NCBI GenBank assembly: GCA_964613035.1
Contig: CAZTFQ010000002.1
Coordinates: 21,901-85,900, forward strand
From: an uncultured Christensenellaceae bacterium
Lineage (GTDB): Bacteria > Bacillota > Clostridia > Christensenellales > DTU072
DNA: 64,000 nt
Direction of reading: 5' to 3'
Below the pieces are notes generated by a model. It did no database searches. It was not told the DNA's origin and was given only the letters and a program-made list of their open reading frames with translations. Below, one piece after another: positions 26,983-41,343 of this stretch. The first letter of the stretch is position 1. Each line of letters opens with the position of its first letter. Position numbers and translations under genes: made by a program.

Positions 26983-28422
26983 TTAATTCTCTTGTACGAG
27001 GATATCGTACTCGGGCATAGGCTTGTTGCGATATTCTTCATCCATTATCGCGAGCTGTTTTTTGATTATGCCTCTCATTCTCACGGCGGGCTCCAGACAA
27101 TATTGTCTCAAGAGCTCCGTATCGACGTCGGAGGGTTGTTTCCAGTGCGGGAAGAGGAGCTTAAGATAAGCGGTCATAATCTTCTTCACGGCATTGGTGT
27201 CACGGGTATCCGCATTGTCGGGGACGACGAGGAACGCGTCCACGAGACCTTTTGAGACAACGTCTTCTCTTAACGCGTGCAATATTTCGGCGAAGTATTC
27301 CGTATTGAGGGCGAAGCCTTCCGCTTTCATACTCTCGTTCATACGAGGGAGTTTCCAGCCCTCGACGAATCCGTGGAAGCGGTCGATGAGCGCGGAGTCG
27401 CCGAAGACTTCCGGCAGTGACTCGAACATATTGACGTTGACGTCCATGACCTCGGATCTGATATTGCCGAGCAAGACCACGCCTGCGTCGCCTTTGCCAG
27501 CCTTGGTGCCGACGGTGTAGGAACCGTTCTCCAGGTATCCTTTCATCGCGCCCTGCATCTCGGACGCGTCGGGGAACTTAATGGTGCTGATTTCGTCCAG
27601 AGCGACGTAGTCGTAATTGGCGACGAGACCGTCGGTCTTTTTACTCATATCGTAGAACATTTTCGCTCTGGTCATAACGCCGCCGCTGGAGAGCCAGCCG
27701 CGCTTGCTGATCTGAGAATAGACGTAGCTTTTGCCGGTGCCCTTGGGGGCGAGCTCGATCATATTGAGTCTCTTCTCGAGGAAGGGAAGGAGTCTGGTAA
27801 GTGCCATCAATTTTCCTTCTCTAGAAGAGTATCCTTCGGGGTTATAATCCATCGCCATCAAGAGGACGTCGATCCATTCGTCCAGCTCGAAATATTTACG
27901 AGCGTTTTTATAATAATCGAGGTCGACGCTATAGGGTAAGAAATTCTTAAAGGACAATAACAGAATTCTGTTCTCCGTCTTCTTGGGGCTGACCTGAACC
28001 TGACCGTACCCCAGCTCTATTATCCCCCATATATCTCCGTCGGTGCCGAGGAGACTGTCTTTACATACGCTCCAGACCTCTTTTGAAATATAGGTGTCGG
28101 AGTTCTTCACGTCGAAGTCGGGCAGAGAAAAGCTGATTTTGTTGGCTTTGATATCGAGCGAAACGTTGATTTTCGCAAGAAACTTCACCTTTTCTCCGTT
28201 CATTATGGAATCGATGATGGCGTTCCATTCTCCCTTACGGGGGATGATGTCTTTTATCTTTTCCAAAACGAAGTCGACGTTGACGTCGCCGTTTTTGTCG
28301 GAATAGCGTTTTATGAACCAGTCTCTGATGAACGCAGGCAGGCTCAGAGCGGAAAAGATGCTCTGGACCGACGACTTTTTAACGACCATTCCTTCGAAAT
28401 ATTGTCTGACTTTTTCTTCCAT
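26983..28422 (-). CDS. P-loop NTPase, possibly BrxL-N-terminal/TIGR02688-like (uncertain family)
   Basis: Walker A LAPKGTGKSY and Walker B YDYVALDEIS. The N-terminal approximately 200-aa domain resembles the BREX BrxL N-region. A 1-nt gap separates it from the upstream AAA gene. Confidence 0.55.
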   Translation of the reverse strand: MEEKVRQYFEGMVVKKSSVQSIFSALSLPAFIRDWFIKRYSDKNGDVNVDFVLEKIKDIIPRKGEWNAIIDSIMNGEKVKFLAKINVSLDIKANKISFSLPDFDVKNSDTYISKEVWSVCKDSLLGTDGDIWGIIELGYGQVQVSPKKTENRILLLSFKNFLPYSVDLDYYKNARKYFELDEWIDVLLMAMDYNPEGYSSREGKLMALTRLLPFLEKRLNMIELAPKGTGKSYVYSQISKRGWLSSGGVMTRAKMFYDMSKKTDGLVANYDYVALDEISTIKFPDASEMQGAMKGYLENGSYTVGTKAGKGDAGVVLLGNIRSEVMDVNVNMFESLPEVFGDSALIDRFHGFVEGWKLPRMNESMKAEGFALNTEYFAEILHALREDVVSKGLVDAFLVVPDNADTRDTNAVKKIMTAYLKLLFPHWKQPSDVDTELLRQYCLEPAVRMRGIIKKQLAIMDEEYRNKPMPEYDILVQEN

Positions 28423-28423
28423 A

Positions 28424-29950
28424 TTATATCTCCATATCGTTTTCGATAACGCCTTTCATGAAGGTAATTTCTTGATTGCAAATGTGATTTTTGGACGATA
28501 TCTCGGCGACGTAGGTACCCGGGGCGTCGATATCCACGACACAACTCCAGTTGCGGATACATTTTTCGCAAGAATAATGCTTGCCGTCCAGCTTGAGATA
28601 CATTCTGTCGTAATCTCCGTCGACGTAGAATCTCAATACGGGGTTTTCTCCGGGTTGCAGAGCTATCAACGTGCTCTCGAACTCGACCGTCGGCGCGTCC
28701 TGAGCGGAGGGGGCTTGAGGTTTCTCTACGGGCTCGGGTTGTACCGCGGGCTGTTCGGGAATAATCTCGGGCACGTCGTCTTCGACGGGTTTTTCGTTAA
28801 GTGAGCGGTCCTTGCCCGCATATTCTTCGAATCGCGCGATTTCCTTTTTGTCGACCATCGGTTTGACCTTTTTTATCGCGTCTACGATATGCTTTTGGGT
28901 GACTTTCATCTCGACGTTCGTGCGGATAAAGCTATTGAGGGGGACGTCCTTGGCGCGATCGCAAATTTCGTCTATATCCGCGCCGGAATAGCCCTCCGTG
29001 AGCTTGGCGATGACGTCGAAGTCCACGTCGTCTTCTATCGGGATGTCCGACAATTGTTTTTTAAGCAGATATTTTCTAGCCGCCTTATCGGGGAGAGGAA
29101 CGTAGATTTTTTCGCTGAATCTTCCCGATCTGACCGCCGCGCCGTCTACGTCCCAGGGGCGATTGGTCGCGCCGAGAAGGAGCAGATTGGGGTTACGTCC
29201 GACGAAGCCGTCTATCTGTTGTAAAAACTCGTTGACGCGCTTATCGTTGTGGGGGTCGTTGCCGCGTTGACCGAAGAGGCTGTCCATCTCGTCGATGAAG
29301 ATGATTGCCAGCTTATCTTTTCTGGCGGTCTCGAAGAGGCTGCTGATGTTCTTTTCCGATTCTCCGACCCATTTACTGACGATATCGGAGCCTTTTATCG
29401 CATAAAAGGTCGCTCCGACCTCGTTGGCGATGGCTTTGGCTATCATCGTTTTCCCTGTGCCGGGAGGACCGTACAGGAGCACGCCGCCGCCGCTTTTTTT
29501 GCCGTAGCGGGCGTATTTCTCGGGATATTTGACGGGATTAATCATCCTCATCCTAATGGACTGCTTGACGTCCTCTAGTCCCGCAACGTCGCTGAATTTG
29601 ATGTCGGGGATGGTTGCGGCTTGCCATTGTTTGGCGTCCTCATCCGACGATGCCGCGTTTTTCTGCCCCGCGGACGGAGCCTTCTTCGGCGTAGTCTGAC
29701 CCGCCGTGCCGCCGATGACGGCGCCGCCTTCCAGATTCTCGGCGATCTCGATGAGCCTTTTCGCTCTCTCGAAGCGAGCCTTTTTCAACTCGCCGGTATC
29801 TTCTTTGGCAAGTTTTATGAGAGCCTGAGCCGCGCGGAGGAGGTTTTCTTTGGCACCGGCGACGTCTCCCCTCTGCTGGGCTTTTTTGGCGTTGTCGTAA
29901 TACATAAGAAACGTATCGTATATGAACGTGCTCTTATCTTCATCCCTCAT
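28424..29950 (-). CDS. Vps4/katanin/spastin-clade AAA+ ATPase with an N-terminal MIT-like domain and a novel Cys-containing C-terminal domain
   Basis: The MIT-like helical N-terminus is YDNAKKAQQRGDVAGAKENLLRAAQALIKLAKE. The AAA core is GVLLYGPPGTGKTMIAKA...SDIVSKWVGESEKNISSLFETARKDKLAIIFIDEMDSL, near-identical in pattern to Vps4. The C-terminal approximately 110 aa contain a CxxC...C...C arrangement. Confidence 0.85.
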   Translation of the reverse strand: MRDEDKSTFIYDTFLMYYDNAKKAQQRGDVAGAKENLLRAAQALIKLAKEDTGELKKARFERAKRLIEIAENLEGGAVIGGTAGQTTPKKAPSAGQKNAASSDEDAKQWQAATIPDIKFSDVAGLEDVKQSIRMRMINPVKYPEKYARYGKKSGGGVLLYGPPGTGKTMIAKAIANEVGATFYAIKGSDIVSKWVGESEKNISSLFETARKDKLAIIFIDEMDSLFGQRGNDPHNDKRVNEFLQQIDGFVGRNPNLLLLGATNRPWDVDGAAVRSGRFSEKIYVPLPDKAARKYLLKKQLSDIPIEDDVDFDVIAKLTEGYSGADIDEICDRAKDVPLNSFIRTNVEMKVTQKHIVDAIKKVKPMVDKKEIARFEEYAGKDRSLNEKPVEDDVPEIIPEQPAVQPEPVEKPQAPSAQDAPTVEFESTLIALQPGENPVLRFYVDGDYDRMYLKLDGKHYSCEKCIRNWSCVVDIDAPGTYVAEISSKNHICNQEITFMKGVIENDMEI

Positions 29951-29965
29951 GACGTATTCCTCTTA

Positions 29966-30550
29966 TTATTGTTTTAAGCTCTTAGCCAGTTCTTCCAGCT
30001 GGCGGTCGATATCGTTGTCCAGAGACTGCTCCTCGTCGGAAGCCTGGTTGCCTATAAGCGCCTCCAACTCGCTGTCGTCGATGTTGATGTTGGAAGACGA
30101 AATCGCGGTGAAGGTATCGTTGGTGGAGTCGAGCATGGCGTCGAGGTTGTCGGTGGTCTCTTCCACGCCCATCATCGCCGCTTCGAATTCCTTCTGGACC
30201 TTGGCGAAGTTCATATCCTTGGTAATAGCCTGCATTTCCTTAGAAACGACGCTCATTCCTTTAAGAAACTCGCCCGTCATCTGGCTCAAATCGCGCATTT
30301 GGAGAGTGTTTTGGAAATTAAGAAGCATTTCCTTGGCTTTTTTCTCCTGAGCCATAGCGGTCCTTAAGCAGCTGACTGCCAGGCTGTATTGCTGAGGAGA
30401 GCCTTGAATCTTAGCCTGTTTTGCGGATTCTACGGCTTTTTGTTTCTGAGCCTGGAGCTTGGTGATATGCTTCTCTATGTCGCGCATGGTCCTGCGCACG
30501 AGCATTCTCTTCTCCATTTCTTTTTCTTGTTTTGTCTTAAAGAGTCCCAT
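29966..30550 (-). CDS. Snf7/ESCRT-III-like protein (CHMP3/Vps24-like) with a C-terminal MIM-like motif
   Basis: The N-terminus MGLFKTKQEKEMEKRML... matches MGLFGKTQEK of Vps24. The N-terminal half is basic and the C-terminal half acidic. It ends DIDRQLEELAKSLKQ, resembling MIM1 (D/E)xxLxxRLxxL(K/R). Confidence 0.75.
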   Translation of the reverse strand: MGLFKTKQEKEMEKRMLVRRTMRDIEKHITKLQAQKQKAVESAKQAKIQGSPQQYSLAVSCLRTAMAQEKKAKEMLLNFQNTLQMRDLSQMTGEFLKGMSVVSKEMQAITKDMNFAKVQKEFEAAMMGVEETTDNLDAMLDSTNDTFTAISSSNINIDDSELEALIGNQASDEEQSLDNDIDRQLEELAKSLKQ

Positions 30551-30561
30551 AATAATTACCT

Positions 30562-31164
30562 CTAGATGGAAGAGCTCTCGCTCTGCTTGTTTTCTTCTTC
30601 GGATATCTCGGAGCCGAAGTTTTCCGCGTCTTTTTCCGAGCCGGATATTTCAAACATACTGAGGAGTTGATCGTCCTGCTCGTTGATTCCGTAGATGCGT
30701 TCGTCCGCCTCGTAGGCGTCCTCGACTTCTTCGAAGGTCTCCAAAGTCTCCGACAGCATACTTTCGCTACGCATTTTTTGTCCGGATATTCCGCTGATAA
30801 ACTTACGGAGCGCGTTGGTGTCCGTAAGAAGCTTGTTGATAGGCATATCGGAATTGTTGTTGATGAATTCCTTATCGTCTATTGCGGTCTTGAGCTGATT
30901 GAGCGCGAGAAGATTGGCGTTGAGATACTGGATGCGCTGATTAGCCATCTGATTCTCTTTACGTAAAAGATTGATACGCTTGGCAAGAGTCAACTGTCTG
31001 TCGCGGCTCTTGGTCTCGCTACCAGCCTTAAGGAGCTTCTCTATCTCTTTTTCCCTCTCCTCGACGGCGTCCATTTCTTCTTGCTGTTTTTTCTCGACGT
31101 TGATTATGTTTTCCACAACGTCGCTACGTTTGATTTTCTCAAACTTATTCTTAAAAAAGCACAT
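30562..31164 (-). CDS. Snf7/ESCRT-III-like paralog (200 aa)
   Basis: The N-terminus MCFFKNKFEK follows the same M-[GC]-[LF]-F-[KQ]-x-K pattern. It is predicted coiled-coil with a basic N-half and an acidic C-tail. Confidence 0.6.
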   Translation of the reverse strand: MCFFKNKFEKIKRSDVVENIINVEKKQQEEMDAVEEREKEIEKLLKAGSETKSRDRQLTLAKRINLLRKENQMANQRIQYLNANLLALNQLKTAIDDKEFINNNSDMPINKLLTDTNALRKFISGISGQKMRSESMLSETLETFEEVEDAYEADERIYGINEQDDQLLSMFEISGSEKDAENFGSEISEEENKQSESSSI

Positions 31165-31166
31165 TT

Positions 31167-31520
31167 TTATACCCCCGCCAGACTGTTGCGCTCAACAATC
31201 ATTATCCTGACGTCGTTGATTTTATCGAGAATTTTTCCTTCGTTTTTATCTCCGGATATCAGAATCTTGATATCGTCCAGCTTATCCGCTATTTTGTCGT
31301 CTTCTTTCATGACTGCGGGTGCGGTGGAAGGCGCGCCGTACTCGACGAGTTCTTCCAGCTCGCGGAGCTTCTCTTTGACGACGTCGGACTCGGACATCGC
31401 TATCAGAGTCTTGACCTTGGCAAGATTGATACGCAGGGTCTCGACGTTATCCTTTATCGCCTCGTCGTGCTTGTCGTATTGTTTTTGATGTTTTTTATAC
31501 TTGGATTGGAAAAAACACAT
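31167..31520 (-). CDS. Short Snf7/ESCRT-III-like paralog (117 aa)
   Basis: N-terminus MCFFQSKYKK. Helical with charge asymmetry. Perfect RBS AAGGAG. It lies 2 nt from the next gene. Confidence 0.5.
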   Translation of the reverse strand: MCFFQSKYKKHQKQYDKHDEAIKDNVETLRINLAKVKTLIAMSESDVVKEKLRELEELVEYGAPSTAPAVMKEDDKIADKLDDIKILISGDKNEGKILDKINDVRIMIVERNSLAGV

Positions 31521-31532
31521 AATCTTATCTCC

Positions 31533-32468
31533 TTATTGTAATCTGTTGCCGCATTTGTTGCAGAACAATGCGTCCGCGCTGACCTTGGCGCCGCACTTGG
31601 AGCAGTATCTGCATACTTCAGCATTGCTGTTGACCACTACCTTGGGTCCGCTGTTTTTCTCGGCGTCCGCGGCGACTTCCGCAAGTTTGACGGTAGCGTC
31701 CACGTACATCTTGGCTGCTTCTTGTCTGGAAGCTCTTTCCTTAGAAAAACTACTGTCTTTAAGCTCGAGAAGTCTCTTTTGTTTGAGAATGGCTTCCAGC
31801 TCTCTGATATCGCTGTCGGCGATTTTGACGTCGTTGAGAGAGAACGCCGTTATTTCCACGCCGTAGTCGTCGAACATCTTTCTGACGCTGTCCAAAATGG
31901 TGTCGCAGATGATTTCCAGATTGGAATTGATCTCGAAATAGCTTATCTTGCTACGCTGCATGGCGTTGGCGATGATGTCCTTGATTTTTACGAGCATTTT
32001 ATCCGCGAAAAACTTCTGGAGCCCGACCGTGGTTATGCCCGCGGTGTTGCCTACTACCTTGGAGATAAACTTACGAGAATTGCTGATATTGATATCGAAA
32101 GAGCCGTGCATTCCTACGTTGACGATATAGTCCGCGAAGGGATCTCTGACTTTCATCTGAGAGGGCGTGCCCCACGGTACGATCAGAGTAACGGTCTTGT
32201 TGACGAAAAACGCCTGACATTTAAAAGGCTCGCTGACGATCTTCTTGCCTATGCCCAAGAATCCTTTCGATACGACGGGCACGTTGAGAGAGTGCTTACC
32301 CGGCAACATCGTGTCCAACATCTGTCCGTCCTTAATAAATACGACTTCGTGAGAAAAAGGAACGATTACCTCTGTCTCCCCTATACATTGCTCGATCTGA
32401 GACTGCCAAACGATAACCTCGTTGGGTCCCTCATAGTCGATAATGGTTTTCGGTAAATCTTTTGCCAT
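31533..32468 (-). CDS. SPFH (stomatin/prohibitin/flotillin) domain protein with a C-terminal Zn-ribbon (COG4260-like)
   Basis: The N-terminus IIDYEGPNEVIVWQ is typical of this SPFH subfamily. The C-terminus carries CRYCSKCG...CNKCG. Confidence 0.7.
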   Translation of the reverse strand: MAKDLPKTIIDYEGPNEVIVWQSQIEQCIGETEVIVPFSHEVVFIKDGQMLDTMLPGKHSLNVPVVSKGFLGIGKKIVSEPFKCQAFFVNKTVTLIVPWGTPSQMKVRDPFADYIVNVGMHGSFDINISNSRKFISKVVGNTAGITTVGLQKFFADKMLVKIKDIIANAMQRSKISYFEINSNLEIICDTILDSVRKMFDDYGVEITAFSLNDVKIADSDIRELEAILKQKRLLELKDSSFSKERASRQEAAKMYVDATVKLAEVAADAEKNSGPKVVVNSNAEVCRYCSKCGAKVSADALFCNKCGNRLQ

Positions 32469-32486: not shown

Positions 32487-33815
32487 TTAATACATATTTT
32501 TTTTGCTTTCCAGCAATGAAGCTTTTTGTTCCAGCCACTCCGCAAAACCGTTGATTTCCACCAACTTGGACTCGTAGCCGCCGCGCAGTCTGCCCATCTC
32601 GTCCAGAATCTGCATCATATGAGAATCGTCCCAGGATCCCGTGAGTCGTCCGAGCGCGTAGAGACACTCCGTGATGACGTTATTTTGCCCGTTGCCGTAG
32701 TCTCTCAATTTCCTCGCCAACAACCTCAGCGCCTCGGGATTGGTACGGACGTCTCCGCCGCCCGTCGAATAAGAACCGCGAACGCCTTCCGCCGATACGG
32801 AACCGCCCGACGACGATTCTCTGCCTCCGCCGTACGAAGGAGCTCTTTTCTCGGGAGCTTTTTCGGGAGCCTTCTCGGGGGTTGCTTTTTCCTTTTCGGC
32901 GACAGGCTCGGAAGCCTTTTCTACGGGTTTCTTTTCCTCGCGGACGAATTGTTTCGCCGCCAATCGAAGAATTCCTTCGAAGTCGCCGTTGCCTATCTCG
33001 AAATAAGGATTGCGCTTGAGTTCCGACGGCATATCGTCGATATCGCAGTCGTACAAGGCGAGGCAGGCTTTTTTGGACGGATCGCTCTTAGCCATCCGCA
33101 GATAACGTCTCCAGACGTCTTCCGCCTGCGTGAGGTTGCAATTGTCAAGCGACGACGTCATTACTATCAACAGCTTGGCTTTCGATATCGCGTTGTAAAG
33201 ATACGGTTCGCGTTCGGTCGGTCCGAGATTTCCCAACTCCGCGCCGCTCCAGAAAACCTTCTTTTTCGTACGTGCTTTCAGTGCCGCGACCAGAGGCATC
33301 GCCAGGGACGCTTCCGGGGAATATTCCTCGCAACACACCATGATGTCGTAGTCGGATTCTTTAGCTATTCTTAAGGCGTTGTTACGCAGTCTGTCCAGCT
33401 CTTCCGCCTTGTAAGCGTATTCTTCCGCCATACTCCCGGGACATAGCGACATGGCTTTTTTATAATAAGCGCTGTCGAAAAACGATTGCGAGCCGATTTC
33501 GTAAAACACCGGACACAAACCATCGTCGTATTTTGAATAAGTCAGGTGCTTGGACGCCAGCATCAATCCCCAGGCGGCTTCGAAGCTGTCGGGGGCATCT
33601 TTCAAAATAGACTCGTAGTCTTCCATCGCCTCTTCGAACTTCGCTTTCCGTCTATACGCGCTCGCGCGGTTAAGATTGATAATGAGCTCGTCGGAGACTT
33701 TAGTAAGATCTATTTCGAACTTCGAATGACAATATATGCACTCGTAGGAGCCCTCGGCCACCTTTTCCAGCGCGCCTCCGCACATTTGACATTCCAGTTT
33801 TCTTAGTTCTGCCAT
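32487..33815 (-). CDS. Zn-ribbon/TPR-like protein with a possible TIR-like (flavodoxin-fold) domain, a PEK-rich linker and a helical C-domain
   Basis: The N-terminus is CQMCGG...YECIYCHSKF. The middle block DIMVCCEEY...KKKVFWSGAELGN...KAKLLIVMTSS has a TIR-like beta-alpha pattern. A (PEKA)n linker follows. The ATG at 33815 overlaps the upstream stop (TGATG). Confidence 0.5.
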   Translation of the reverse strand: MAELRKLECQMCGGALEKVAEGSYECIYCHSKFEIDLTKVSDELIINLNRASAYRRKAKFEEAMEDYESILKDAPDSFEAAWGLMLASKHLTYSKYDDGLCPVFYEIGSQSFFDSAYYKKAMSLCPGSMAEEYAYKAEELDRLRNNALRIAKESDYDIMVCCEEYSPEASLAMPLVAALKARTKKKVFWSGAELGNLGPTEREPYLYNAISKAKLLIVMTSSLDNCNLTQAEDVWRRYLRMAKSDPSKKACLALYDCDIDDMPSELKRNPYFEIGNGDFEGILRLAAKQFVREEKKPVEKASEPVAEKEKATPEKAPEKAPEKRAPSYGGGRESSSGGSVSAEGVRGSYSTGGGDVRTNPEALRLLARKLRDYGNGQNNVITECLYALGRLTGSWDDSHMMQILDEMGRLRGGYESKLVEINGFAEWLEQKASLLESKKNMY

Positions 33816-35923
33816 CACGCACCTCTGTTGCTATCGAGAGCGCTGCCCGAAAAAGCCGTCGAAGAGACGTCGCAATCTTCTTTATAGACGACCTCGACCA
33901 GAGACGTACAATTGCCGAAGGCGTATTCGCCGATAGTGTCGGCGTTGCGGCAATCGACCACTCTCAGCCCGACACAATCGAAAAACGCATAACTGCCGAC
34001 GTTGCCTTCCACGAACACCTTTTTAAGGGACTCGGGGACTTCGTAGCCGCCGAAAAAGTATGCGAGACCCGAGACGTAAGTACCGCCGTTGGTGAGGCTT
34101 TGGACCGTCAACTCCTCTAGTCCCGTGCATCCGTACAACGCACCGTATCCGAAATCTGCGCTACAGGGTAAATCTAATTTTTTAAGAGAGCGACAATTGG
34201 CGTACGCGTTCTCTCCCACGTATATGAAAGTGTTGGCGGAATAAGTCTTGACGGTTATTTTTTGTACATCGATGAGATTGGCAAAGACTTCCGAAGGAAT
34301 AGAGCAAGTCGACGACAAGCTTGTACGCGCGTTGCTGTATTCCACTATTTTCAACGATTTAGGTATATAACTTCTTATTGTGGATTCATTTAAATCGCCG
34401 TCGTATTTCGTCGCACCGAAAAATCTCGAAATACTAGAATTACTAACGTTGTCGAGGTTGTCCTCGAAGACGAGTTTTTGGAGATTTTTGCATCCGGACA
34501 GCGCGCCCTGTTCGATGAGTCTGATATTGTCGCCGATAGTCAGAGAGATTATCGCCTCGTTGCCGCGGAAAGCGTTTGCTCCCAGTCCGACGACGTCGTA
34601 TTCCGTACCGTTGAGCGTAACCTTCTCGGGCACGACGACCTCGTAGTATCCGGGATAAGACGACGATTCCTCACTATCAGGGAAGCTCTTCACGCCCTCT
34701 ATACGCGCGACCAAATCTTCGTTGTCGAAGGAAAGACTGAAAAGATATCCTTCGTCTGAGAGGTTGTATTCTCCCGCCGTGAATCCTTTTAAGAACAAAT
34801 ATCCGCCGGTAAGACCTACCGCCAGGACGAGTATCAACACGATGAAGCTCGTCCAGAGTCTGCCTTTATACTGAGGCGCGTATTTACATTTATGTTTGAT
34901 TTTCTTCCAAGTTACGGGGTCTTCTATTACGATAACGCCTTCCTTCTTCTTGCCGGACTTCTTTTTCTTATGTCCGATAATAAGGAACAGCACGTTGAAC
35001 ACCAGCGAAAATCCCGCCAGACCGAGTCCCAAGAAACAGGCGATTATGTAAAACGCATACGCGCTAAGCATGAGTTCTTCTTGCGCCAGCATCGCGAGAG
35101 GTCCCGCGAAAACAGCCAGCGCCGCGCCCGACGCCACGCCGATGATCATCGACAACCAGGACATGAGCGTGCCTTTTCTTCTGCCTCTCTTTATCTTCTC
35201 GTCGACGCACTGCGCGAGGTCCGCGGTATGCTTTTTACTGTTACTTTTAATAACTGAATAGTTTTTTTTGTATTTTTCGGCGATGGCGTCTTCCTTATTG
35301 CGATATTCGTCCAGATGCGCCTCGAACTTGTCGTTATTCTTGAAGCTTACCTCGGCTTTGGAAGAGAACACGTGAGGATAAGTACCGCGTCTAAGGTCGT
35401 GAAAATCGGCTTCTGCCGTCTCCCAAACCTCTTCCGAATAACCTTTCATCCGATCGGAAACGAAAGACTGCTGAAGATACTTCTTCCCTGCGGAAACGTT
35501 GGATTTTATTTGTTTTTTCTCGGTCGACAATATTTCCGAGTCTTCTTCGATAGGCTCGAGAACGATTTCTTCCGTTTTCTTTTTCCCGCGCTTTTTAGAA
35601 GCCGATTTGTCTTCTTTGGGAGAGGGGGCTTCTACAACTTCTTCGACGACTTCTTCGTCGTCCTCGGATTCCTCCGCGAAAAACGCCTCGATATCGTCCT
35701 CGTAGTCGGAGTCGTCTTCTTCGTCTTCTTCGTAGTATTCTTCCTCTTCGACTATTATATCGTCGTCGTATTCTTCGTTGACGGAAATAGTCGACTCTTC
35801 GTCGGAAGCGACTTCTTCGGATTTCTTATTAGCCTCTTCTTGCGCCAGCATGTTTTGCTTCTCTTCAAGAAGTTTTTTCAACTCTTCGATGGTTAAATTG
35901 TTGAGATCGTCTTTTTTACCCAT
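33815..35923 (-). CDS. Membrane protein: hyper-acidic cytoplasmic N-region, 3-4 TM helices and an extracellular BspA-type leucine-rich-repeat domain
   Basis: An EEYDDDIIVEEEEYYEEDEEDD tract. Hydrophobic helices lie around residues 255-360. The C-terminal repeats with IGEYAFGNCTSLVEV are typical of BspA-like LRRs. Confidence 0.65.
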   Translation of the reverse strand: MGKKDDLNNLTIEELKKLLEEKQNMLAQEEANKKSEEVASDEESTISVNEEYDDDIIVEEEEYYEEDEEDDSDYEDDIEAFFAEESEDDEEVVEEVVEAPSPKEDKSASKKRGKKKTEEIVLEPIEEDSEILSTEKKQIKSNVSAGKKYLQQSFVSDRMKGYSEEVWETAEADFHDLRRGTYPHVFSSKAEVSFKNNDKFEAHLDEYRNKEDAIAEKYKKNYSVIKSNSKKHTADLAQCVDEKIKRGRRKGTLMSWLSMIIGVASGAALAVFAGPLAMLAQEELMLSAYAFYIIACFLGLGLAGFSLVFNVLFLIIGHKKKKSGKKKEGVIVIEDPVTWKKIKHKCKYAPQYKGRLWTSFIVLILVLAVGLTGGYLFLKGFTAGEYNLSDEGYLFSLSFDNEDLVARIEGVKSFPDSEESSSYPGYYEVVVPEKVTLNGTEYDVVGLGANAFRGNEAIISLTIGDNIRLIEQGALSGCKNLQKLVFEDNLDNVSNSSISRFFGATKYDGDLNESTIRSYIPKSLKIVEYSNARTSLSSTCSIPSEVFANLIDVQKITVKTYSANTFIYVGENAYANCRSLKKLDLPCSADFGYGALYGCTGLEELTVQSLTNGGTYVSGLAYFFGGYEVPESLKKVFVEGNVGSYAFFDCVGLRVVDCRNADTIGEYAFGNCTSLVEVVYKEDCDVSSTAFSGSALDSNRGA

Positions 35924-35976: not shown

Positions 35977-36252
35977 TTATTTTATCAGCCCCGAGTATCT
36001 CTCCATTATGTCGAGCCTCTGCGTCACGCCGTCGTCCACCGTCGCTCTGTACGCCGCCACGACTTGCAGAAGAGCCTCCAGCTCCGATAATATCTCTCCC
36101 GTGAGATTGTCTATACTCTTCTCCGTCGCGATATCGCTAAGAGAATCTTTTAGCAGGATATACTCGGACTCTATTCTTTCGTGAAGTTCCGCCGTACACG
36201 CTCTGAAAGCGAGAAGCTTCTCGGGAGTGTTATCTATCGTTATTCCGCTCAT
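35977..36252 (-). CDS. Small helical protein (92 aa)
   Basis: The ORF-track N-extension overlaps the upstream gene. The internal ATG at 36252 gives a 4-nt overlap (ATGA) with the upstream stop, typical of translational coupling. Confidence 0.45.
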   Translation of the reverse strand: MSGITIDNTPEKLLAFRACTAELHERIESEYILLKDSLSDIATEKSIDNLTGEILSELEALLQVVAAYRATVDDGVTQRLDIMERYSGLIK

Positions 36253-36761
36253 AGACCGAATCTCCTCGCGTTGAGATATTCTCCGACGCAATTTTCGCAG
36301 GCGTCGACGAGTGCCGCTCTCGCTCCGAATGTCTCTCCCAGAGCGTTGAGCAATCGGCTGATTTCCGAAGTGAGCTCGTCGGCTCTCTCTATCCTTTTGT
36401 CGACGAAACCGCATATCTCCTCTATAACGGAGATATTGGCGGAGAGCTCTTTACAAAACTCGTCTATTCCGTCGATGTCGGCGGCAAGTTTTTCAGACTC
36501 GCCTTCGTTTTTGTCAAACAACTTTTCCTCGCTGCTGACGGAAACGAGATCGTTTTCCATGGCGACGCGTCTGGTGTTGCGCTCTTCGATGATGGCGTTA
36601 AGTTTCCTCTTCTTGTCCTCGAGATTTTCGCGGACGGACGAGGCGATTTCTCTTGCCGCGGCTATTTCCGAGGAATACGCGCCGACGTTTTCCGCAATCG
36701 TCGCGTACAGCTTGAAATAGACGTTCTTTGCCGCTTCTATCGCGTCGAGATTGACTTTCAT
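36249..36761 (-). CDS. Coiled-coil protein (170 aa)
   Basis: RBS GGAGGAG. Heptad-like helical sequence. Stop/start overlaps on both sides. Confidence 0.5.
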   Translation of the reverse strand: MKVNLDAIEAAKNVYFKLYATIAENVGAYSSEIAAAREIASSVRENLEDKKRKLNAIIEERNTRRVAMENDLVSVSSEEKLFDKNEGESEKLAADIDGIDEFCKELSANISVIEEICGFVDKRIERADELTSEISRLLNALGETFGARAALVDACENCVGEYLNARRFGL

Positions 36762-37021
36762 CGGTTCTCCTCCGCACGCGCATACGCCGCTCTCAAAAGG
36801 TTGTCGAGGTCTTCCGCGGGTACTGCCGCCACCGCCTCGTTGAGGGCGGTAAAGAATTCTTCGTCGCTTCTTTTCAACAAGAGCGCGACGTTACTGAGAT
36901 CTTCTATTCCGCTACCGAGAACCGCCGCGCCTACTTCGTCGTCCCATTCCGCGGACAACTCGTCGATAGACGCGCGGGCTTCCGCTATAGCCGCCAGACA
37001 ATCGTCGATATACTTACTCAT
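36758..37021 (-). CDS. Small helical protein (87 aa), WXG100-sized
   Basis: All-helical and acidic with a central W (AEWDDEVG). It has 4-nt overlaps with its neighbours. Confidence 0.5.
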   Translation of the reverse strand: MSKYIDDCLAAIAEARASIDELSAEWDDEVGAAVLGSGIEDLSNVALLLKRSDEEFFTALNEAVAAVPAEDLDNLLRAAYARAEENR

Positions 37022-37284
37022 GAGTCAAGATACATACACAGCCAGTTGTAAACTTCCTGACAAAAGCCGTCTATGGCGTTGAGTCTGCCGAGAATTTCCG
37101 ACAAGTCTGCCGTTATTCCCTGGAAGTTGTTAAGAAACTTGACCACGTTGGCGTCTTTCCATTCCGACAGACTCTGTTCTATCTCCGACACCATCTCGGA
37201 ATGATTTTGGACAAGCGCCTGCTCGGTCTGTCTCACTATGTTCTGAGCCGTCAGTACGGACTCTTTGCTTACGTTGACGTTCAT
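37018..37284 (-). CDS. Small helical protein (88 aa), WXG100-sized
   Basis: RBS GAGGAAAGA. Helix-turn-helix-like hairpin with a central SEWKDA. Confidence 0.5.
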   Translation of the reverse strand: MNVNVSKESVLTAQNIVRQTEQALVQNHSEMVSEIEQSLSEWKDANVVKFLNNFQGITADLSEILGRLNAIDGFCQEVYNWLCMYLDS

Positions 37285-37292
37285 TCTTTCCT

Positions 37293-37559
37293 CTACTTGA
37301 GCGTAATGCTTCTATATAAGTCGATGAGCTCTTGTTTTTGCCTGATGACGTTTTCGACGCCGTCGGTCTTGGAAACCAGCTCGTCGGCAATCGACAACAA
37401 CTTGACCGCGACTTCTTCCGCGTCGGCGTAATCTCGGTCGGCACAATTCTCTTTCAGCGCCTGTACTTTACGCAGATAATCGACGCACGCGTCTCTTACT
37501 TCTCCGACGACTCTTCCGAGCGCTCCCTCGTCTACGGAACCGCTTACCTTTACTTCCAT
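37293..37559 (-). CDS. Small helical protein (88 aa)
   Basis: Helical. It overlaps the 3' end of the upstream ATPase gene by 10 nt. Confidence 0.5.
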   Translation of the reverse strand: MEVKVSGSVDEGALGRVVGEVRDACVDYLRKVQALKENCADRDYADAEEVAVKLLSIADELVSKTDGVENVIRQKQELIDLYRSITLK

Positions 37560-40500
37560 AGAGCGTTATAATCCTCTGCCAGCTTAACCATCCAGGCTTC
37601 GTCCGCTTCGCTGTAGTATCTGTACGGCTTAAACTTATTCATCTCGTTGTTGACGAGGCATACGCCCAGTCCTTCTATGCCGATATTGATATTGCTTCTA
37701 AACGATGCGACCGATGTGACGGCTTCCGCGTCGAGTCCCTTGATGAAGACCTTGTTCTGACAATTACGCATAACGGTATTGATGCTGGGGACGCTGGACG
37801 GCTTGTCTATCGAGAACACTATATGAATATTCTGGTTGGGTCCGTTTTCGAACACGTCGTTGAACAGTTGCGAAAAAGTCATCTTGTTGCCGCCGGAAGA
37901 CGCCGCGCCGCCTAAGTTGAGTCCGAGACTGAACCCCATTCCGGACGATGACGCCACGGGTGCGGGGGCGGGTTTTTCGGACAAATCGATGAGCTTGGAG
38001 TTGTCCTTGAAGTAAGACGCTATCTCCTGAATTTTGTTTATGAACAGGAATATCGGATTGTGCTTATCCTGAATATGGTCTGCTCTCTCTTTTCTGAGAT
38101 TATGAAGCTTGACCAGAGCATCGGTGAGATCTCCCGCGGCATTCAAAACGCGAGTCGAATCCGCGAAATACTTAGGCAGGACGAAGAACAGGTCGTCGGG
38201 GTTTTTCTGACTGATGACTTCGCCGTTGAAGTAGTACACCTGCGCGGAGGAGTCGTTTTCAAAGTCTTGGTTGGTACGGTTTTCCATAAGCACGGACAGC
38301 ATGGAAAAGCCCATCATATCTCTCAGCACCTCTACGTTGGCGCCGGCGAACCACAGGTTGGAATTGGACTCGCGCAGACGTATCGGGATATTGTACGGCT
38401 TGCCGGAGATGTAATCCTGACCGATAGCCAGATTGTAGAAGTCGGCGGACTTGGAGACGATATCTTCTTTCGAGACTTTTTTCGTGTAAGCGGAGAGACC
38501 CTCGTTGGCTTTGGGCTCTTCGAGGTTGCTGCCGACGACGAAGAGCGGCTCTCTGACGCTCCACTTGGAGACGACGTCTTGCCACTTCTCTATAATGCGC
38601 TCGGAATACATCTCTCTGTTGTCGGAGTTTTCCGCATACGCCACGCGGAATTCAGCCGCGTTCTGTCCAGTACGGGTATCCTTGATGATGCCTACGCCCA
38701 AGGTATTGGACAAATTGGCTACTTTAGATACGCTTATGCCCAGTTCTTGCGCGTCGTCGGGATTGTTGAGTTTAAGAGAAATTCTGTTGCCTATCTGAGA
38801 AATGACCTTGTCTCTGAGTCCCGCCACCTTAGGCACGTTCTGCGACGCCCAGAGCACGTTGATGCCGAAAGCTCTGCCTTTTTTGAAGAGCTTGGACATA
38901 AGATTGATGGCGTAGGTGCCGACGTTTTGGTCGCGCTCGAACAGTTCCTGAACCTCGTCGATGATGACAAGCAGTCTCGGGAGCGTCTTACCGGCACGCT
39001 TCTTGTATTGCATGATGTCTTCCACGTTGTTGTTGCGGAAGAGCGCCTCTCTTCTCTCCAGCTCTTTGTCTATGTTGGACAACACCGCGAGTCCGTCCTC
39101 GGGGTCGGAAGAAAGCGCCGTCAGCTTGACGTGAGGAAGTTGTTTTTCTACGTTCTTGTTGGCTTCGTAATACTTGAATTCCACGCCGCCCTTGAAGTCG
39201 ACCAGGTAGATGTTGAGGTCGTCGGGGCTGTACTTATAGCACGCGGACATAACGATGGCGTGGAGTAGGTTGGACTTACCGCTACCGGTACCGCCTATCG
39301 CCAGAGCGTGAGCCGCGCCGTCGCCCTTGGACGAAAACGCCAGAGTCTGAACGTCTCCGCCTCTCATACCTATCGGGATATCGATAATCTCCGTAGGATC
39401 CGCGTAATCCTCGCTCTTGACGACGACGTCGGTGCTGTCGAACATCTTGGACAGTGCGATAACCTTGTTGGCGCTCTTCTTGATGTTCTGTTTCATAACC
39501 TTGATGTAGTCGTCCAGCTTTTCGTACGAGCAGTCTTTATTGTTTTCGAAAACGTATTTGGGATTGGCTTCCAAATAAATTTCGCCGCCCTTAACGAGGA
39601 AATAATTCATCGATTGCTTCGCCTCCGCGACGAAGTCTTTTATGTACTGGGGCTGAGTGCCCTTGCCGTTGTACAGCATTATCGTGAATATACCGGAACG
39701 ATTGCCGTTGTCGATGATTTTTTTGAGTCTCTTGACGGTCTTCTCGCTGCTGAAACATTCCGGGAAACCGACTATCGACAACACCGAGAACGCCTGGGGG
39801 TCGTTTTCGGAAACGACGTTGTAACCGTAGATGTCTTTTTTGTTGCTACGAGTGATTTTATCGTCGTAGATACTGCCCATTCTCTCGTCAAGATTGACAA
39901 TCTCGTTGGACACTCTCGAATCGTCGTTGTAAGTCTTTTTGAATAGATTGTTGTCGATGTTGTTGAGCTGGTTGAACGCGGCGAATTCTCCCGTATCGTA
40001 GAGGTCTATCAGTTGATAATTGACCCTCGTCGGCGGGAACCCCATCAAAAACGACAACATAATGTTGCGCACCATCGATATGGCGACCGCATTATCCTTG
40101 TCGGAATCCACTTCTATCAAAACGTTGCCGTTCTTTTTCAACTCCAGCACGTACGGCGCGGTCAGTACGCCGCCGGGCGTGTATTTGCCGAGTAAGGGAC
40201 TGTCGGTAGAATTGATATATTTTTTGTAGCCGTCCTTATCGAGATAACTGATCTTCATATCGCCGAGAGTCAGCTTGGTGGGATAAGTAAGACTGCCTTT
40301 TTCGAAGTCTACCTTGCCGCTCTTGGCAGACTCGTAAATGTCGCAAAAACGGTCGTCGTTGAGAACATTGTCTTCTACCTGAAGTCTGTTCTTGAGAGCG
40401 GAAGCCATCTCCTTATTGAGGACCGCCGCGCAATCTGCCATATATTCTTCCGACTGCTTTTTGAGATGTTTATCGAATTTTTTAAGGTCGAAACGTCTCC

Positions 40501-41086
40501 TTATCATCGTTTCCATGGAGTCGAGGACCATACGGCACTGAGAAGCCTTCCCGTACAGCTCTCTCATCAGGTCCGTATAAGGCGTCCCGTAGACGCCGTA
40601 CTCCTTGGAGTCGCCGAGCGTTACGGTCCTCTTCCCGTCGCGATCGTTGATTACGAAGCTCTCCGCTCTGCCTTCTACGGAGAGAACCTCGGGAATGGGT
40701 TCGGTCGCCTCCAAATCGAGGTCGTTGAGAGCCTCTACGAGAGCGTTCATTTCCGCACACAGTCTTTTGACGGTGTCTCTGTTGACGTCGTAGTCGAGAG
40801 AAACGATTCCTTCCTTGGGGACGTCGCCTATGTTGGCGATACTCTCTTTCATGCTATTGCCGTATGAGTCGAGGAGCTTTTGAATATCTTTTCTGACTCT
40901 GTCCACTTCCGTCTTGACGTAAGTATCGATCGACTTCTCCATCTCCTTGTAGAGCTTGGAATTGGTCTCGTCGAGAGCGTTGCGTTGCATAACGATAGCG
41001 CCGGCGATTTCTTTCTCGAAGGCGCTCAACGCGGAAAAACGAGCGTTGAAAGAATCTATCATTTTTTTGATTTCTTTGAATTCCAT
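37550..41086 (-). CDS. FtsK/SpoIIIE-family (EssC/EccC-like) ATPase with three tandem domains (one intact P-loop), no TM segment
   Basis: Central domain is GGTGSGKSNLLHAIVMS (Walker A) ... LPRLLVIIDEVQELF (Walker B). The flanking domains have the FtsK-like fold pattern but degenerate P-loops. It is the first gene of the operon, with RBS GAGAGGAAG. Confidence 0.75.
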   Translation of the reverse strand: MEFKEIKKMIDSFNARFSALSAFEKEIAGAIVMQRNALDETNSKLYKEMEKSIDTYVKTEVDRVRKDIQKLLDSYGNSMKESIANIGDVPKEGIVSLDYDVNRDTVKRLCAEMNALVEALNDLDLEATEPIPEVLSVEGRAESFVINDRDGKRTVTLGDSKEYGVYGTPYTDLMRELYGKASQCRMVLDSMETMIRRRFDLKKFDKHLKKQSEEYMADCAAVLNKEMASALKNRLQVEDNVLNDDRFCDIYESAKSGKVDFEKGSLTYPTKLTLGDMKISYLDKDGYKKYINSTDSPLLGKYTPGGVLTAPYVLELKKNGNVLIEVDSDKDNAVAISMVRNIMLSFLMGFPPTRVNYQLIDLYDTGEFAAFNQLNNIDNNLFKKTYNDDSRVSNEIVNLDERMGSIYDDKITRSNKKDIYGYNVVSENDPQAFSVLSIVGFPECFSSEKTVKRLKKIIDNGNRSGIFTIMLYNGKGTQPQYIKDFVAEAKQSMNYFLVKGGEIYLEANPKYVFENNKDCSYEKLDDYIKVMKQNIKKSANKVIALSKMFDSTDVVVKSEDYADPTEIIDIPIGMRGGDVQTLAFSSKGDGAAHALAIGGTGSGKSNLLHAIVMSACYKYSPDDLNIYLVDFKGGVEFKYYEANKNVEKQLPHVKLTALSSDPEDGLAVLSNIDKELERREALFRNNNVEDIMQYKKRAGKTLPRLLVIIDEVQELFERDQNVGTYAINLMSKLFKKGRAFGINVLWASQNVPKVAGLRDKVISQIGNRISLKLNNPDDAQELGISVSKVANLSNTLGVGIIKDTRTGQNAAEFRVAYAENSDNREMYSERIIEKWQDVVSKWSVREPLFVVGSNLEEPKANEGLSAYTKKVSKEDIVSKSADFYNLAIGQDYISGKPYNIPIRLRESNSNLWFAGANVEVLRDMMGFSMLSVLMENRTNQDFENDSSAQVYYFNGEVISQKNPDDLFFVLPKYFADSTRVLNAAGDLTDALVKLHNLRKERADHIQDKHNPIFLFINKIQEIASYFKDNSKLIDLSEKPAPAPVASSSGMGFSLGLNLGGAASSGGNKMTFSQLFNDVFENGPNQNIHIVFSIDKPSSVPSINTVMRNCQNKVFIKGLDAEAVTSVASFRSNINIGIEGLGVCLVNNEMNKFKPYRYYSEADEAWMVKLAEDYNALWK

Positions 41087-41202: not shown

Positions 41203-41232
41203 AATAATACAACGGGGGGGGGTACCTGTCAA
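41203..41232 (-). promoter_or_regulatory. Candidate promoter of the 15-gene operon with a G10 homopolymer in the spacer
   Basis: Minus strand TTGACA (41232-41227), an 18-nt spacer containing C10 (41213-41222 on the plus strand as G10), then TATTAT (about 41208-41203). Confidence 0.45.
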
Positions 41233-41343
41233 TACCTTGCAAGAAAAAAATAAAGGATTTTTTAAGTTTTTAGCACACTTAGCGATTGAATATTATAAAA
41301 ACGGTCGATTGCAATCGCAACCGACCGAGAACGACCGATTTTT

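Follow-up and report, generated by a model that had tools for sequence, protein, structure and literature searches.

A soluble EssC/EccC-family ATPase encoded with divergent WXG100-like proteins and an ESCRT-type gene module in an uncultured Christensenellaceae bacterium

A 64,000-nucleotide stretch of contig CAZTFQ010000002.1 from an uncultured Christensenellaceae bacterium (the window, in which position 1 is the first letter and to which all coordinates refer) carries on its minus strand an operon of 14 genes that starts with an FtsK-family ATPase gene and ends with a short brxL. An earlier reading of the letters of the ATPase gene and its five small successors, which we call the original prediction, had described an EssC/EccC-like ATPase without transmembrane (TM) or FHA regions, followed by five translationally coupled small helical proteins of WXG100 size. 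These six genes, and the domains of the ATPase, are as follows.

41086..37550, minus strand: ATPase gene, 1178 amino acids (aa), matching the list of open reading frames (ORFs)
ATPase residues 1-295: helical N-region, of no family recognised by Pfam
ATPase residues 296-562: D0, a degenerate P-loop-type domain homologous to D1
ATPase residues 563-832 (39400..38591, minus strand): D1, the active domain, with intact Walker A and Walker B
ATPase residues 833-1178: D2, a degenerate domain with a disordered G/S/P-rich insert at about 1035-1068
37559..37293, minus strand: s1, 88 aa, WXG100-superfamily hairpin protein of the W-x-D type
37284..37018, minus strand: s2, 88 aa, WXG100-superfamily hairpin protein
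37021..36758, minus strand: s3, 87 aa, helical, with its own conserved W-x-D-x-x-G/S
36761..36249, minus strand: s4, 170 aa, coiled-coil protein
36252..35977, minus strand: s5, 91 aa, helical protein

The start of s5 was set at the internal ATG 36252, and the mechanical ORF from 36414 was judged overlong, because the orthologues are 92-94 aa long and start at the equivalent ATG. From the ATPase to s5 the junctions are, in order, a 10-nt overlap, an 8-nt gap and three 4-nt ATGA overlaps, and GGAGG-like sequences resembling Shine-Dalgarno sites lie 5-10 nt 5' of most operon starts, so that "translationally coupled" was a fair description. Four of the small proteins have the predicted WXG100 size (87-91 aa); s4, with 170 aa, does not.

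The ATPase is a soluble protein of the EssC/EccC family, closer to EccC and EssC than to FtsK, TcpA or HerA, and the predicted affinity was borne out by profile, sequence and fold searches alike. NCBIfam models ranked EccCa (2.3e-33), EssC (1.2e-30) and EccCb (2.9e-24) ahead of the models from outside type VII secretion systems (T7SS), namely FtsK (9e-8), CedB (3e-7) and HerA (1.5e-6), and a sequence search of the PDB placed T. curvata EccC first (3.6e-27), with EccC5 (3e-20) and YukB (5e-15) ahead of TcpA (7e-9) and FtsK (5e-7). An AlphaFold model of the ATPase, built from an 8-sequence alignment with a mean predicted local distance difference test score (pLDDT) of 56.8 and used for ranking fold matches, not for geometry, gave Foldseek alignments of 530-925 columns with EccC/EssC structures of two and three domains (6e-15 to 6e-12; FtsK 1.5e-7, TcpA 7e-7). 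The protein falls far under the NCBIfam equivalog cutoffs, at 115.9 bits against 509 for EccCa and 106 against 778 for EssC.

These rankings bear directly on the possibility that the gene encodes a DNA translocase, either chromosomal (FtsK/SftA/SpoIIIE) or conjugative (TraB/TcpA), a grouping that the original prediction had named as contrary to it. The Pfam FtsK_SpoIIIE match of the protein, confined to residues 583-784 (E 2.7e-30), would fit such an enzyme, as would the appearance of FtsK and TcpA lower in the match lists, but FtsK, TcpA, CedB and HerA trail EccC/EssC by 20 or more orders of magnitude. The tandem layout of three domains, two of them dead, the lack of TM segments and of a gamma domain, the consistent linkage to WXG100-like genes, and Pfam scans of the operon proteins that returned no relaxase or replication genes all speak against it as well, and we regard a translocase of this type as effectively refuted. 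The DNA translocation that the original prediction had offered as an option is unlikely.

D1 holds the single Walker A (GGTGSGKS(N), residue 598) and the single Walker B (LLVIIDE, residue 705; family form IIDEhQELF) of the protein, both invariant across 17 orthologues, and its identity across the family (58-87%) exceeds that of the N-region (14-47%) and of the C-terminal end (22-76%). D0 aligns to D1 over 164 columns (hhalign 91%, E 1e-6) and has no P-loop, the 17 orthologues showing h-h-h-h-N-[FY]-P at the equivalent positions. A search with residues 1-560, which exclude D1, covered 1.84 billion representative proteins; in it D0 was matched by the stretch at about 480-660 of many ~1300-aa proteins (1e-12 to 1e-8), which from their length we take to be EccC-like. 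In EccC a degenerate ATPase-like domain (DUF) precedes D1. At the equivalent positions of D2 the same orthologues have N-h-h-h-A-G... and a Walker-B-like h-F-h-F-I-[NH]-[KS]-h-Q; its order of strands and motifs agrees with that of D1 (hhalign 42%), and a search of D2 against the PDB by sequence gave zero matches. A P-loop ancestry of D2 is likely. The predicted degenerate-active-degenerate order thus holds for D0 and D1 and probably also for D2.

The insert in D2, EKPAPAPVASSSGMGFSLGLNLGGAASSGGNK (ATPase residues ~1035-1068, window 37880-37985), is rich in Pro, Ser and Gly and disordered, and it splits the domain between the Walker-B-like strand and the next strand. This position is occupied in every family member, with length and sequence that vary widely by clade.

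No TM segment was found in the ATPase, the maximum Kyte-Doolittle mean over 19 residues being 1.49 with nothing at or above 1.6, and Pfam gave zero FHA matches, in both respects as predicted. The most hydrophobic stretch, that with the mean of 1.49, is the core helix behind the first strand of D0. Among about 25 close relatives a threshold of at least 1.6 flags either no segment or one, and in 5 of the 6 flagged loci the segment is this same core helix.

The small genes s1 and s2 encode divergent WXG100-superfamily hairpin proteins with a W-x-D turn. By BLAST they form one cluster with the first three small genes of related loci, and a 37-sequence alignment of this s1/s2 family has at its centre, in place of W-x-G, a W-x-D turn in which D is conserved in at least 90% and W in at least 70% of the sequences; the position after it is aromatic or aliphatic. 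The original prediction was right that none of the proteins has a strict WxG; the central Trp that it saw in two of them belongs to the family-wide W-x-D turn, which in the window is kept in s2 (SEWKDANVVKF) and lost in s1, where Trp is replaced by Cys (ENCADRDY; orthologues SWDDSDY, TWQDEDF, EWQDDDY). A distant relative at locus L007 has the canonical FWKGDQY. A profile of the family matched B. anthracis EsxB (4j41, 6e-8), S. agalactiae SAG1039 (2e-7), S. aureus EsxA (1.8e-6) and also H. pylori HP0062 in the PDB, and the alignments are full-length (85-86 of 89 profile positions for EsxB and EsxA), Trp on Trp. Pfam WXG100 was matched at E<=0.01 by 12 of the 37 members (best 6e-7); window s2 matched at E 7.5e-4 with 20.2 bits, under the gathering score of 27.3 bits, and s1 had no Pfam WXG100 match. 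A hidden Markov model (HMM) of the family finds both in the window (s1 E 1e-15, s2 E 1e-29). The gene s2 is the most conserved small gene of the family. Where the original prediction had named as contrary outcomes a grouping with FtsK/SftA or TraB/TcpA and small proteins without an ESAT-6-like fold, the ATPase groups with EccC/EssC and s1 and s2 match EsxB and EsxA.

WXG100 kinship could be established for s1 and s2; s3, s4 and s5, each a helical family of its own, could not be linked to WXG100, having no Pfam match and scoring 6-35% against the WXG-like family by hhalign. For s3 and s5 as WXG100 proteins the values are 22-35%, and this assignment was not established. The gene s3, itself at 22-35% against the family, is the orthologue of an 84-aa gene, c8, of related toxin-linked clades (88%, E 3e-6). 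The gene s5 corresponds in position to c4, a gene of 97 aa found just ahead of the membrane protein in those clades; c4 scores 95.6% against the WXG-like family and s5 scores 30-43% against c4. Each WXG-like subfamily in the 37-sequence alignment has its own conserved C-terminal motif, that of s1 being QKQ-hh-x-x-Y-x-x-I-x-L-K, and s5 ends in a similar QR-h-x-h-h-E-[RK]-Y. The canonical secretion signal that the original prediction suggested looking for at the C-termini, HxxxD/ExxhxxxH, is not enriched, being present in 4 of 37 tails against 6.2 ± 2.0 in shuffles.

The gene s4 sits at the operon position that polymorphic toxins take in the related clades. It has no toxin domain and no Pfam LXG match, and no immunity-like gene follows it. 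As a candidate toxin stem it was compared with the last 74 residues of the toxin N-domain, which gave 58% with four sequences and 27% with seven; the candidate was set aside and the positional equivalence retained.

The observation behind the original prediction is confirmed, with family assignments that are largely right and an interpretation that is supported in part. The gene arrangement is no product of chance, since it recurs in about 20 loci with ATPase identities of 35-84%. A scan of contigs with one genome per species found about 19 loci with a full-length ATPase match (35-66% identity) and many distant relatives, most of the full-length loci being in metagenome-assembled genomes of Clostridia, Christensenellales, Lachnospiraceae and Bacilli. 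An exhaustive search returned 624 proteins at E<=1e-3, among which about 30 clusters (50% identity representatives) have the entire architecture of N-region plus D0 and a length of 1150-1215 aa. A word-indexed protein search under-reported the family, with 8 full-length relatives, so that the contig scan and the exhaustive search were needed. The family is rare, and all its members so far come from uncultured anaerobes. Viral contigs yielded only relatives 23-29% identical to the ATPase, and the family is not evidently phage-borne.

The ATPase and flanking genes of L011 and L012 score identically (3e-237), with L011 binned as Acholeplasmataceae and L012 as Prolixibacteraceae, and the orthologue at L021 is assigned to the archaeon "Methanocorpusculum"; either mis-binning or a recent horizontal transfer could account for these.

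A much commoner sister family occurs in gut Oscillospiraceae and Lachnospiraceae (L043:4596-15684, also L034, L049, L038, L006 and about 30 others). Its soluble ATPase is ~1460 aa long with a single Walker A, and its neighbours include a WXG100 protein (28.7 bits, over the Pfam cutoff), a B-box zinc-finger protein, a 63-aa gene, a 184-aa E2-like gene, Prok-JAB and a ThiF E1; downstream are an effector with an N-terminal WXG100 domain, DUF7675 and an M48 peptidase. Here a T7SS-like module adjoins a complete ubiquitin-like conjugation set, whereas the canonical T7SS has only the non-conjugatable YukD.

The clades with ATPases 35-40% identical to that of the window are informative about function. 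Their gene order is ATPase, three WXG-like genes, c8, a ~470-aa protein, a ~125-aa gene, c4 and a 3-TM protein, with a second ~470-aa/~125-aa pair in some loci and a 6-TM protein after the 3-TM protein in some. The ~470-aa proteins combine a conserved helical N-domain of ~215 aa with a variable C-domain, which is ADPrib_exo_Tox in L019 (6.9e-26) and L011 (2e-11) and differs in other loci; in one locus a Hint module is found on the membrane protein. Some of these toxins begin with a WXG-like domain, and the HMM finds WXG-like N-domains on larger downstream proteins in many relatives. None of the sister-clade toxin N-termini that we inspected has a Sec-type hydrophobic leader. Such a layout is the hallmark of polymorphic toxins dependent on an exporter of their own, and by analogy it follows the genetic logic of T7SSb, with its EssC, EsxA, Laps, LXG toxin and immunity protein. 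[quoted passage not shown] Because the sister clades carry toxins and are without ESCRT genes, we read the core module as one for T7SS-like export or targeting.

In the window, s5 is followed by a membrane protein, a TIR-like protein and a set of ESCRT-type genes. These, and the best promoter match, are as follows.

41232..41204, minus strand: sigma-70-like promoter match by consensus scan only, TTGACA-17-TATTAT, 11/12
35923..33815, minus strand: membrane protein, 702 aa, with three TM segments and BspA-type leucine-rich repeats (LRR)
33818..32487, minus strand: TIR-like protein, 443 aa, with zinc ribbon, TPR, TIR-like fold and C-terminal WXG-like domain
32468..31533, minus strand: SPFH protein (Band_7_1, YdjI-type family, E 1e-22) with a C-terminal zinc ribbon
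31520..31167, minus strand: p117, small helical protein of no recognised family, N-terminal MCFFxSKYKK
31164..30562, minus strand: p200, 200 aa, helical with an acidic tail, N-terminal MCFFKNKFEK, conserved with the module
30550..29966, minus strand: Snf7-like protein, 194 aa, N-terminal MGLFKTKQEKE
29950..28424, minus strand: AAA+ ATPase, 508 aa, classic clade, CdvC/Vps4/CDC48-like
28422..26983, minus strand: short BrxL with BrxL_N and BrxL_ATPase and no Lon protease domain

The membrane protein has an acidic N-region that is predicted to be cytosolic and matches no Pfam family, hydrophobic segments at residues 252-280, 283-318 and 353-382 with a Lys-rich loop between the second and third, and a BspA-type LRR domain that is presumably extracellular. 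In 10 of 13 sister loci a homologous 3-TM protein comes after the small genes. The ATPase itself lacks an anchor, which makes this protein the obvious candidate membrane partner.

The TIR-like protein consists, in order, of a zinc ribbon and TPR, an alpha/beta domain at about residues 155-293, a disordered linker and a C-terminal region of ~90 residues. The alpha/beta domain is well modelled, and in a Foldseek search with it the TIR domains of SARM1, L7, SPARTA, MyD88 and AbTir lead, at a probability of ~1 and a TM-target score of up to 0.75 (AbTir). Homologue clusters of the protein carry precomputed TIR_2 annotations, and the window copy has no Pfam TIR match. A search of the family profile against the PDB by sequence returned TPR matches only, and the fold search was needed. 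In alignments read by eye the conserved Trp stands in W-R/K-R-Y/F and the usual Glu of W-x-x-E is not evident, and NADase activity is uncertain for this reason. The C-terminal region is a WXG-like domain with GSWDDSH at its turn; the last 100 aa score 98% against the s1/s2 family (E 2e-13), and the family HMM matches residues 356-442. This domain is present in all the T7-linked loci examined (the window, L001, L003, L008 and L089). The TIR homologue of L091 (759 aa, E 1.5e-22), a locus with no ATPase within ±10 kb, is without it. The TIR-like protein is part of the ESCRT-type module.

For the TIR-like protein the mechanical ORF gives GTG 33818 as the start, and the adjacent ATG 33815, which fits the MAELRK start of the orthologues, is likely to be the true start. 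The NCBI product (P0017), at 432 aa, has a still later one.

The Snf7-like protein matches Pfam Snf7 at E 8e-5 with 22.8 bits, under the 27.3-bit cutoff, and has 81 homologue clusters, in 25 of which Pfam Snf7 is recorded; its sole PDB match is CHMP2A (E 0.22). Its C-terminus, read by eye as D-x-D-x-x-L-x-x-L-x-x-x-L-K, resembles the MIT-interacting motif MIM1. The AAA+ ATPase encoded next to it has a helical N-region, in which Pfam found no MIT domain, and a C-terminal extension of 130 aa, and it matches AAA (2.3e-41), CdvC (3.7e-64) and, slightly better, CDC48 (1.8e-71), with Vps4_C at 19.8 bits against a cutoff of 21.3. The gene for p117 is conserved wherever the SPFH/Snf7 module is found. 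Comparison of p117 and p200 with ESCRT-III gave hhalign values below 3% (p200 below 1%), and they were rejected as additional paralogues. The short BrxL, encoded by the last conserved gene of the operon, matches the 482-aa PADLOC BrxL model (5e-197), and Pfam and PADLOC found no further component of bacteriophage exclusion (BREX) systems among the operon proteins.

The proteins p117 (MCFFQSKYKK), p200 (MCFFKNKFEK) and Snf7-like (MGLFKTKQEKE) have near-identical basic-aromatic starts that are kept in the orthologues, with the common pattern M-[CG]-[FL]-F-K-x-K-x-E-K. By analogy with the H0 element of ESCRT-III, this motif may be a membrane-binding or lipidation signal.

The SPFH/p117/p200/Snf7/AAA set is found without the FtsK-like ATPase in L091 and L090. 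The cassette of SPFH, ~105-aa, ~207-aa, Snf7-like and AAA genes lies at L091:8133-14037 and L090:4815-12805. Its companions in L091 are PP2C and vWA genes and the gene for a TIR_2 protein of 759 aa; in L090 there are two Snf7-like genes, three AAA genes, an SNF2 helicase and a TnsA-like nuclease-AAA fusion. The Snf7-like homologue cluster P0057 is present in 132 blocks of the contig index.

In the window clade the two halves of the operon are inherited together. The full 14-gene order is kept across ATPase identities of 41-84%, and the ESCRT-type genes stand in the same order in L001/L002/L009, L003/L004, L008 and L089, wherever the locus is long enough; in L089 the Snf7-like protein is 64% identical and the ATPase is of the L010 type, 41% identical to that of the window. 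A neighbour-joining tree without bootstrap places the ESCRT-linked ATPases in a single clade beside the toxin-linked ones. By the ORF list and a terminator scan the gaps from gene to gene are 1-53 nt and there is no strong internal terminator. A strong terminator-like hairpin follows pyrG at 41327..41302, directly beyond it lies the promoter-like site upstream of the ATPase gene (a consensus match only, the best in the 19-kb region scanned), and the next strong minus-strand terminator in the consensus scan of that region is at 23845..23820.

At L022:9890-13722 an ATPase gene, 40% identical to that of the window, has a BrxL fragment (E 8e-27) directly after it, beyond which come unrelated genes on the opposite strand; this looks like a deletion of everything between the first and last operon genes.

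One explanation of the locus is that it joins two unrelated neighbours, a decayed T7SS-like toxin locus whose toxin domain is gone and an independent membrane-stress module of the PspA/YdjI type, brought side by side by chance or by island formation. No toxin-linked relative has ESCRT-type genes, ESCRT-type genes occur elsewhere without the ATPase, s4 resembles a toxin stem without its toxin, and L022 shows that such loci decay, all of which would be expected of chance neighbours. On the other side, the order of the 14 genes holds from 84% down to 41% ATPase identity, the WXG-like domain is on the TIR-like protein only where the ATPase is present (among the loci examined), the small genes and D1 are too well conserved for pseudogenes, and in L022 the ATPase stands directly before the BrxL remnant as if both ends had once bounded one unit. 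Because of the WXG-like fusion, the order kept at identities of 41-84% and the junctions of 1-53 nt without a strong internal terminator, we favour functional coupling over accidental adjacency, which we consider quite unlikely.

An intracellular anti-phage or abortive-infection system has somewhat more in its favour and is still a live, if unlikely, rival; the original prediction had also allowed for a defence system. The ATPase would then sense or translocate invader DNA or protein, with the WXG-like hairpins as regulators or adaptors and the TIR-like protein as effector, while SPFH, Snf7, AAA and BrxL would act on membrane and DNA. The TIR-like fold with TIR_2 in homologues, the match of the short BrxL to its PADLOC model and of the AAA protein to IetA models, and the match of D1 to the FtsK-like part of SspH (6e-25) and to mad8 in PADLOC are consistent with this, as are the SNF2 helicase and TnsA-like nuclease-AAA genes of L090, the TIR, PP2C and vWA genes of L091, and island flanks that differ among genomes. 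The PADLOC matches are, however, single-domain only (SspH, mad8, HerA, IetA, BrxL), and no gene set of a known defence system was recovered. The ATPase is much nearer to EccC/EssC than to DNA pumps and has no FtsK gamma or other DNA-binding domain by Pfam, the canonical catalytic Glu of TIR is not evident, and the exotoxin-type ADP-ribosyltransferases, immunity-like genes and extracellular-domain membrane protein of the sister clades point outward. The absence of close ATPase relatives from viral contigs is neutral on this question.

We favour the reading that a divergent type VII-like module for targeting or export has its cytoplasmic core in the ATPase and the five small genes, and that in the window clade it is co-inherited with an ESCRT-type module, and we give this a probability of roughly 0.55. 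By analogy with T7SS, the ATPase would oligomerise and dock at the membrane through the 3-TM LRR protein, and its variable C-terminal domain would recognise helical-hairpin dimers or bundles, namely s1/s2, with s3, s5 and the s4 rod as Lap/LXG-like partners; the C-terminal end of the ATPase varies between clades, which fits a pattern of specificity. ATP hydrolysis in D1 would move the hairpins, and clients tagged with WXG-like domains, to or across the membrane. The client of the window clade would be the Zn-ribbon/TPR/TIR-like protein, not a toxin, and at the same site the SPFH/p117/p200/Snf7/AAA module would reshape the membrane, repair it or make it bud. Such coupling could result in export via or with remodelled membrane, in the budding of vesicles, in repair where secretion takes place or in a defence response centred on the membrane. 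Our best reading of the window clade is that the module, turned from toxin delivery to a new purpose, serves the Snf7/AAA/SPFH membrane module or is served by it. A hybrid route, in which the ATPase delivers the TIR-like protein and an s3/s4/s5 bundle to sites shaped by Snf7/SPFH/AAA, with exit by LRR-decorated vesicles or a transient opening, seems quite unlikely. The proposal that the ATPase feeds small helical effectors to ESCRT-like machinery, as originally made, finds indirect support in the synteny within one clade and in the WXG-like fusion on the TIR-like protein; the sister clades have no ESCRT genes and carry polymorphic toxins instead.

Several observations weigh against the type VII-like reading. 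Secretion is suggested by the relatives, and the window's clade has no toxin/immunity pair. The ATPase has neither membrane anchor nor FHA and has three NTPase-like domains, not four; the P-loop ancestry of D2 is weakly backed (hhalign 42%, zero PDB sequence matches), and the ATPase model is of low confidence (pLDDT 56.8). Pfam and NCBIfam scans of the operon proteins found no YukD/EsaB, EssA, EssB or EsaA. The proteins s3, s4 and s5 are not demonstrably WXG100 or LXG, with a similarity of s4 to the toxin N-domain of 27-58%, and the canonical C-terminal signal is not enriched in the small proteins (4 of 37 tails). The TIR-like, short BrxL, AAA and SPFH genes are of a sort that occurs in defence islands, and the SPFH/Snf7/AAA module is also found without the ATPase.

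Downstream of BrxL, at 23869..26922 on the minus strand, is a gene for a secreted-looking protein of 1017 aa with a sub-threshold trypsin-like peptidase domain and Flg_new / InlB B-repeats. It shares the terminator at 23845..23820, is not conserved after BrxL in L089 and is probably outside the system. On the plus strand, window 19990-23753 has two tRNA-Met genes, a tRNA-Glu gene and then two ORFs, one of 116 aa (20593-20943) that by eye resembles a four-helix-bundle protein and one of 877 aa (21120-23753) with long Gly/Asn-rich GGNGG repeats at its C-terminus.

Among known systems the nearest are those built on EssC (S. aureus EssC, B. subtilis YukB) and EccC. Like them the window ATPase has tandem FtsK/SpoIIIE-type domains with a degenerate domain before the catalytic one; they give its best sequence and fold matches, and, as with them, WXG100-type proteins and toxins bearing helical targeting domains are genetically linked to it. 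Unlike them it has no TM helices and no FHA, only one of its three NTPase-like domains has Walker motifs, and its N-region is a 295-aa helical segment without a Pfam family. According to Garrett et al. (2024, PMC11217815), the ATPase of all T7SS subtypes a-j is bound to the membrane and has four NTPase domains, and a YukD-like protein is present in nearly all. The subtypes c-j described there resemble the present locus in having gene sets around an EssC-like ATPase and WXG100 proteins in Bacillota, often with toxin/immunity genes nearby, and differ from it in that neither a membrane-bound four-domain ATPase nor a YukD-like protein is found here; the 3-TM LRR, SPFH, Snf7-like, AAA and BrxL proteins do not appear in its component lists as far as these were read.

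The likeness of s1 and s2 to the WXG100/ESAT-6 proteins EsxA and EsxB lies in their size, the full-length profile alignment, the turn Trp and the occurrence of paired paralogues beside the ATPase, and the differences are the W-x-D turn, the lack of the Trp in window s1 and window copies that score under the Pfam gathering threshold. As with LXG toxins and their Laps (PMC10730906, PMC10801868), a protein with a long helical targeting domain comes after small helical partners, and in the sister clades this protein has a variable C-terminal toxin and an immunity-like gene behind it, but there is no Pfam LXG, DUF3130 or DUF3958 match and s4 has no toxin domain. The TIR-like protein resembles TslA, a reverse-orientation substrate of T7SSb (PMC10730906), in that a catalytic-type domain comes first and a helical targeting-type domain is C-terminal.

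The second half of the operon resembles ESCRT-III/Vps4 (CdvB/CdvC) systems in that a Snf7-type protein with a MIM-like C-terminus adjoins a classic-clade AAA ATPase, and the PspA-YdjGHI system (cited in PMC10936438) in that an SPFH Band_7_1 protein bearing a zinc ribbon is encoded upstream of the Snf7-like one. It differs from ESCRT-III/Vps4 in the lack of MIT in the AAA protein by Pfam, in the sub-threshold Snf7 match of the window protein and in having no ESCRT-I or ESCRT-II parts. The window BrxL shares BrxL_N and BrxL_ATPase with its BREX counterpart; it is short and without Lon protease, and there is no PglX, PglZ or BrxA-C among the operon proteins scanned. One review states that a Vps4-like ATPase appears absent in bacteria (PMC7619361) and another that ESCRT components beyond PspA/Vipp1 are not identifiable there (PMC10936438), while a survey of phage shock protein systems reports occasional Snf7-plus-AAA pairs and transferred Vps4-like genes (PMC11237479). 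Because of these statements on Vps4-like ATPases, the pairing of Snf7-like and AAA proteins is itself unusual. A full-text literature search of incomplete coverage found no paper linking bacterial Snf7/Vps4-like genes with FtsK/EssC/WXG100. The best reading of the locus is a soluble-ATPase variant of type VII-like systems, with W-x-D WXG100 proteins and linked to a bacterial ESCRT-III module, a combination for which we found no earlier description.

An EssC/EccC motor embedded in the membrane defines type VII secretion, and the census of subtypes a-j (PMC11217815) has no exception to this. If this interpretation is true, the known architecture of T7SS is wider than described, with a motor that is soluble and a membrane part that is a separate 3-TM protein, and the locus would offer a simpler system for studying hairpin substrate recognition. 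The family occurs in uncultured gut Clostridia, and its sister clades have exotoxin-type cargo. The operon and the 81 Snf7-like homologue clusters indicate that a Snf7-type protein is fixed beside a classic-clade AAA ATPase and SPFH in Bacillota, and the WXG-like domain on the TIR-like protein in T7-linked loci, and not in L091, leads to the testable hypothesis that two machines cooperate. Were the hybrid route to prove correct, it would be the first ESCRT-dependent protein export in bacteria, with a functional Snf7/Vps4-type pair outside archaea and eukaryotes.

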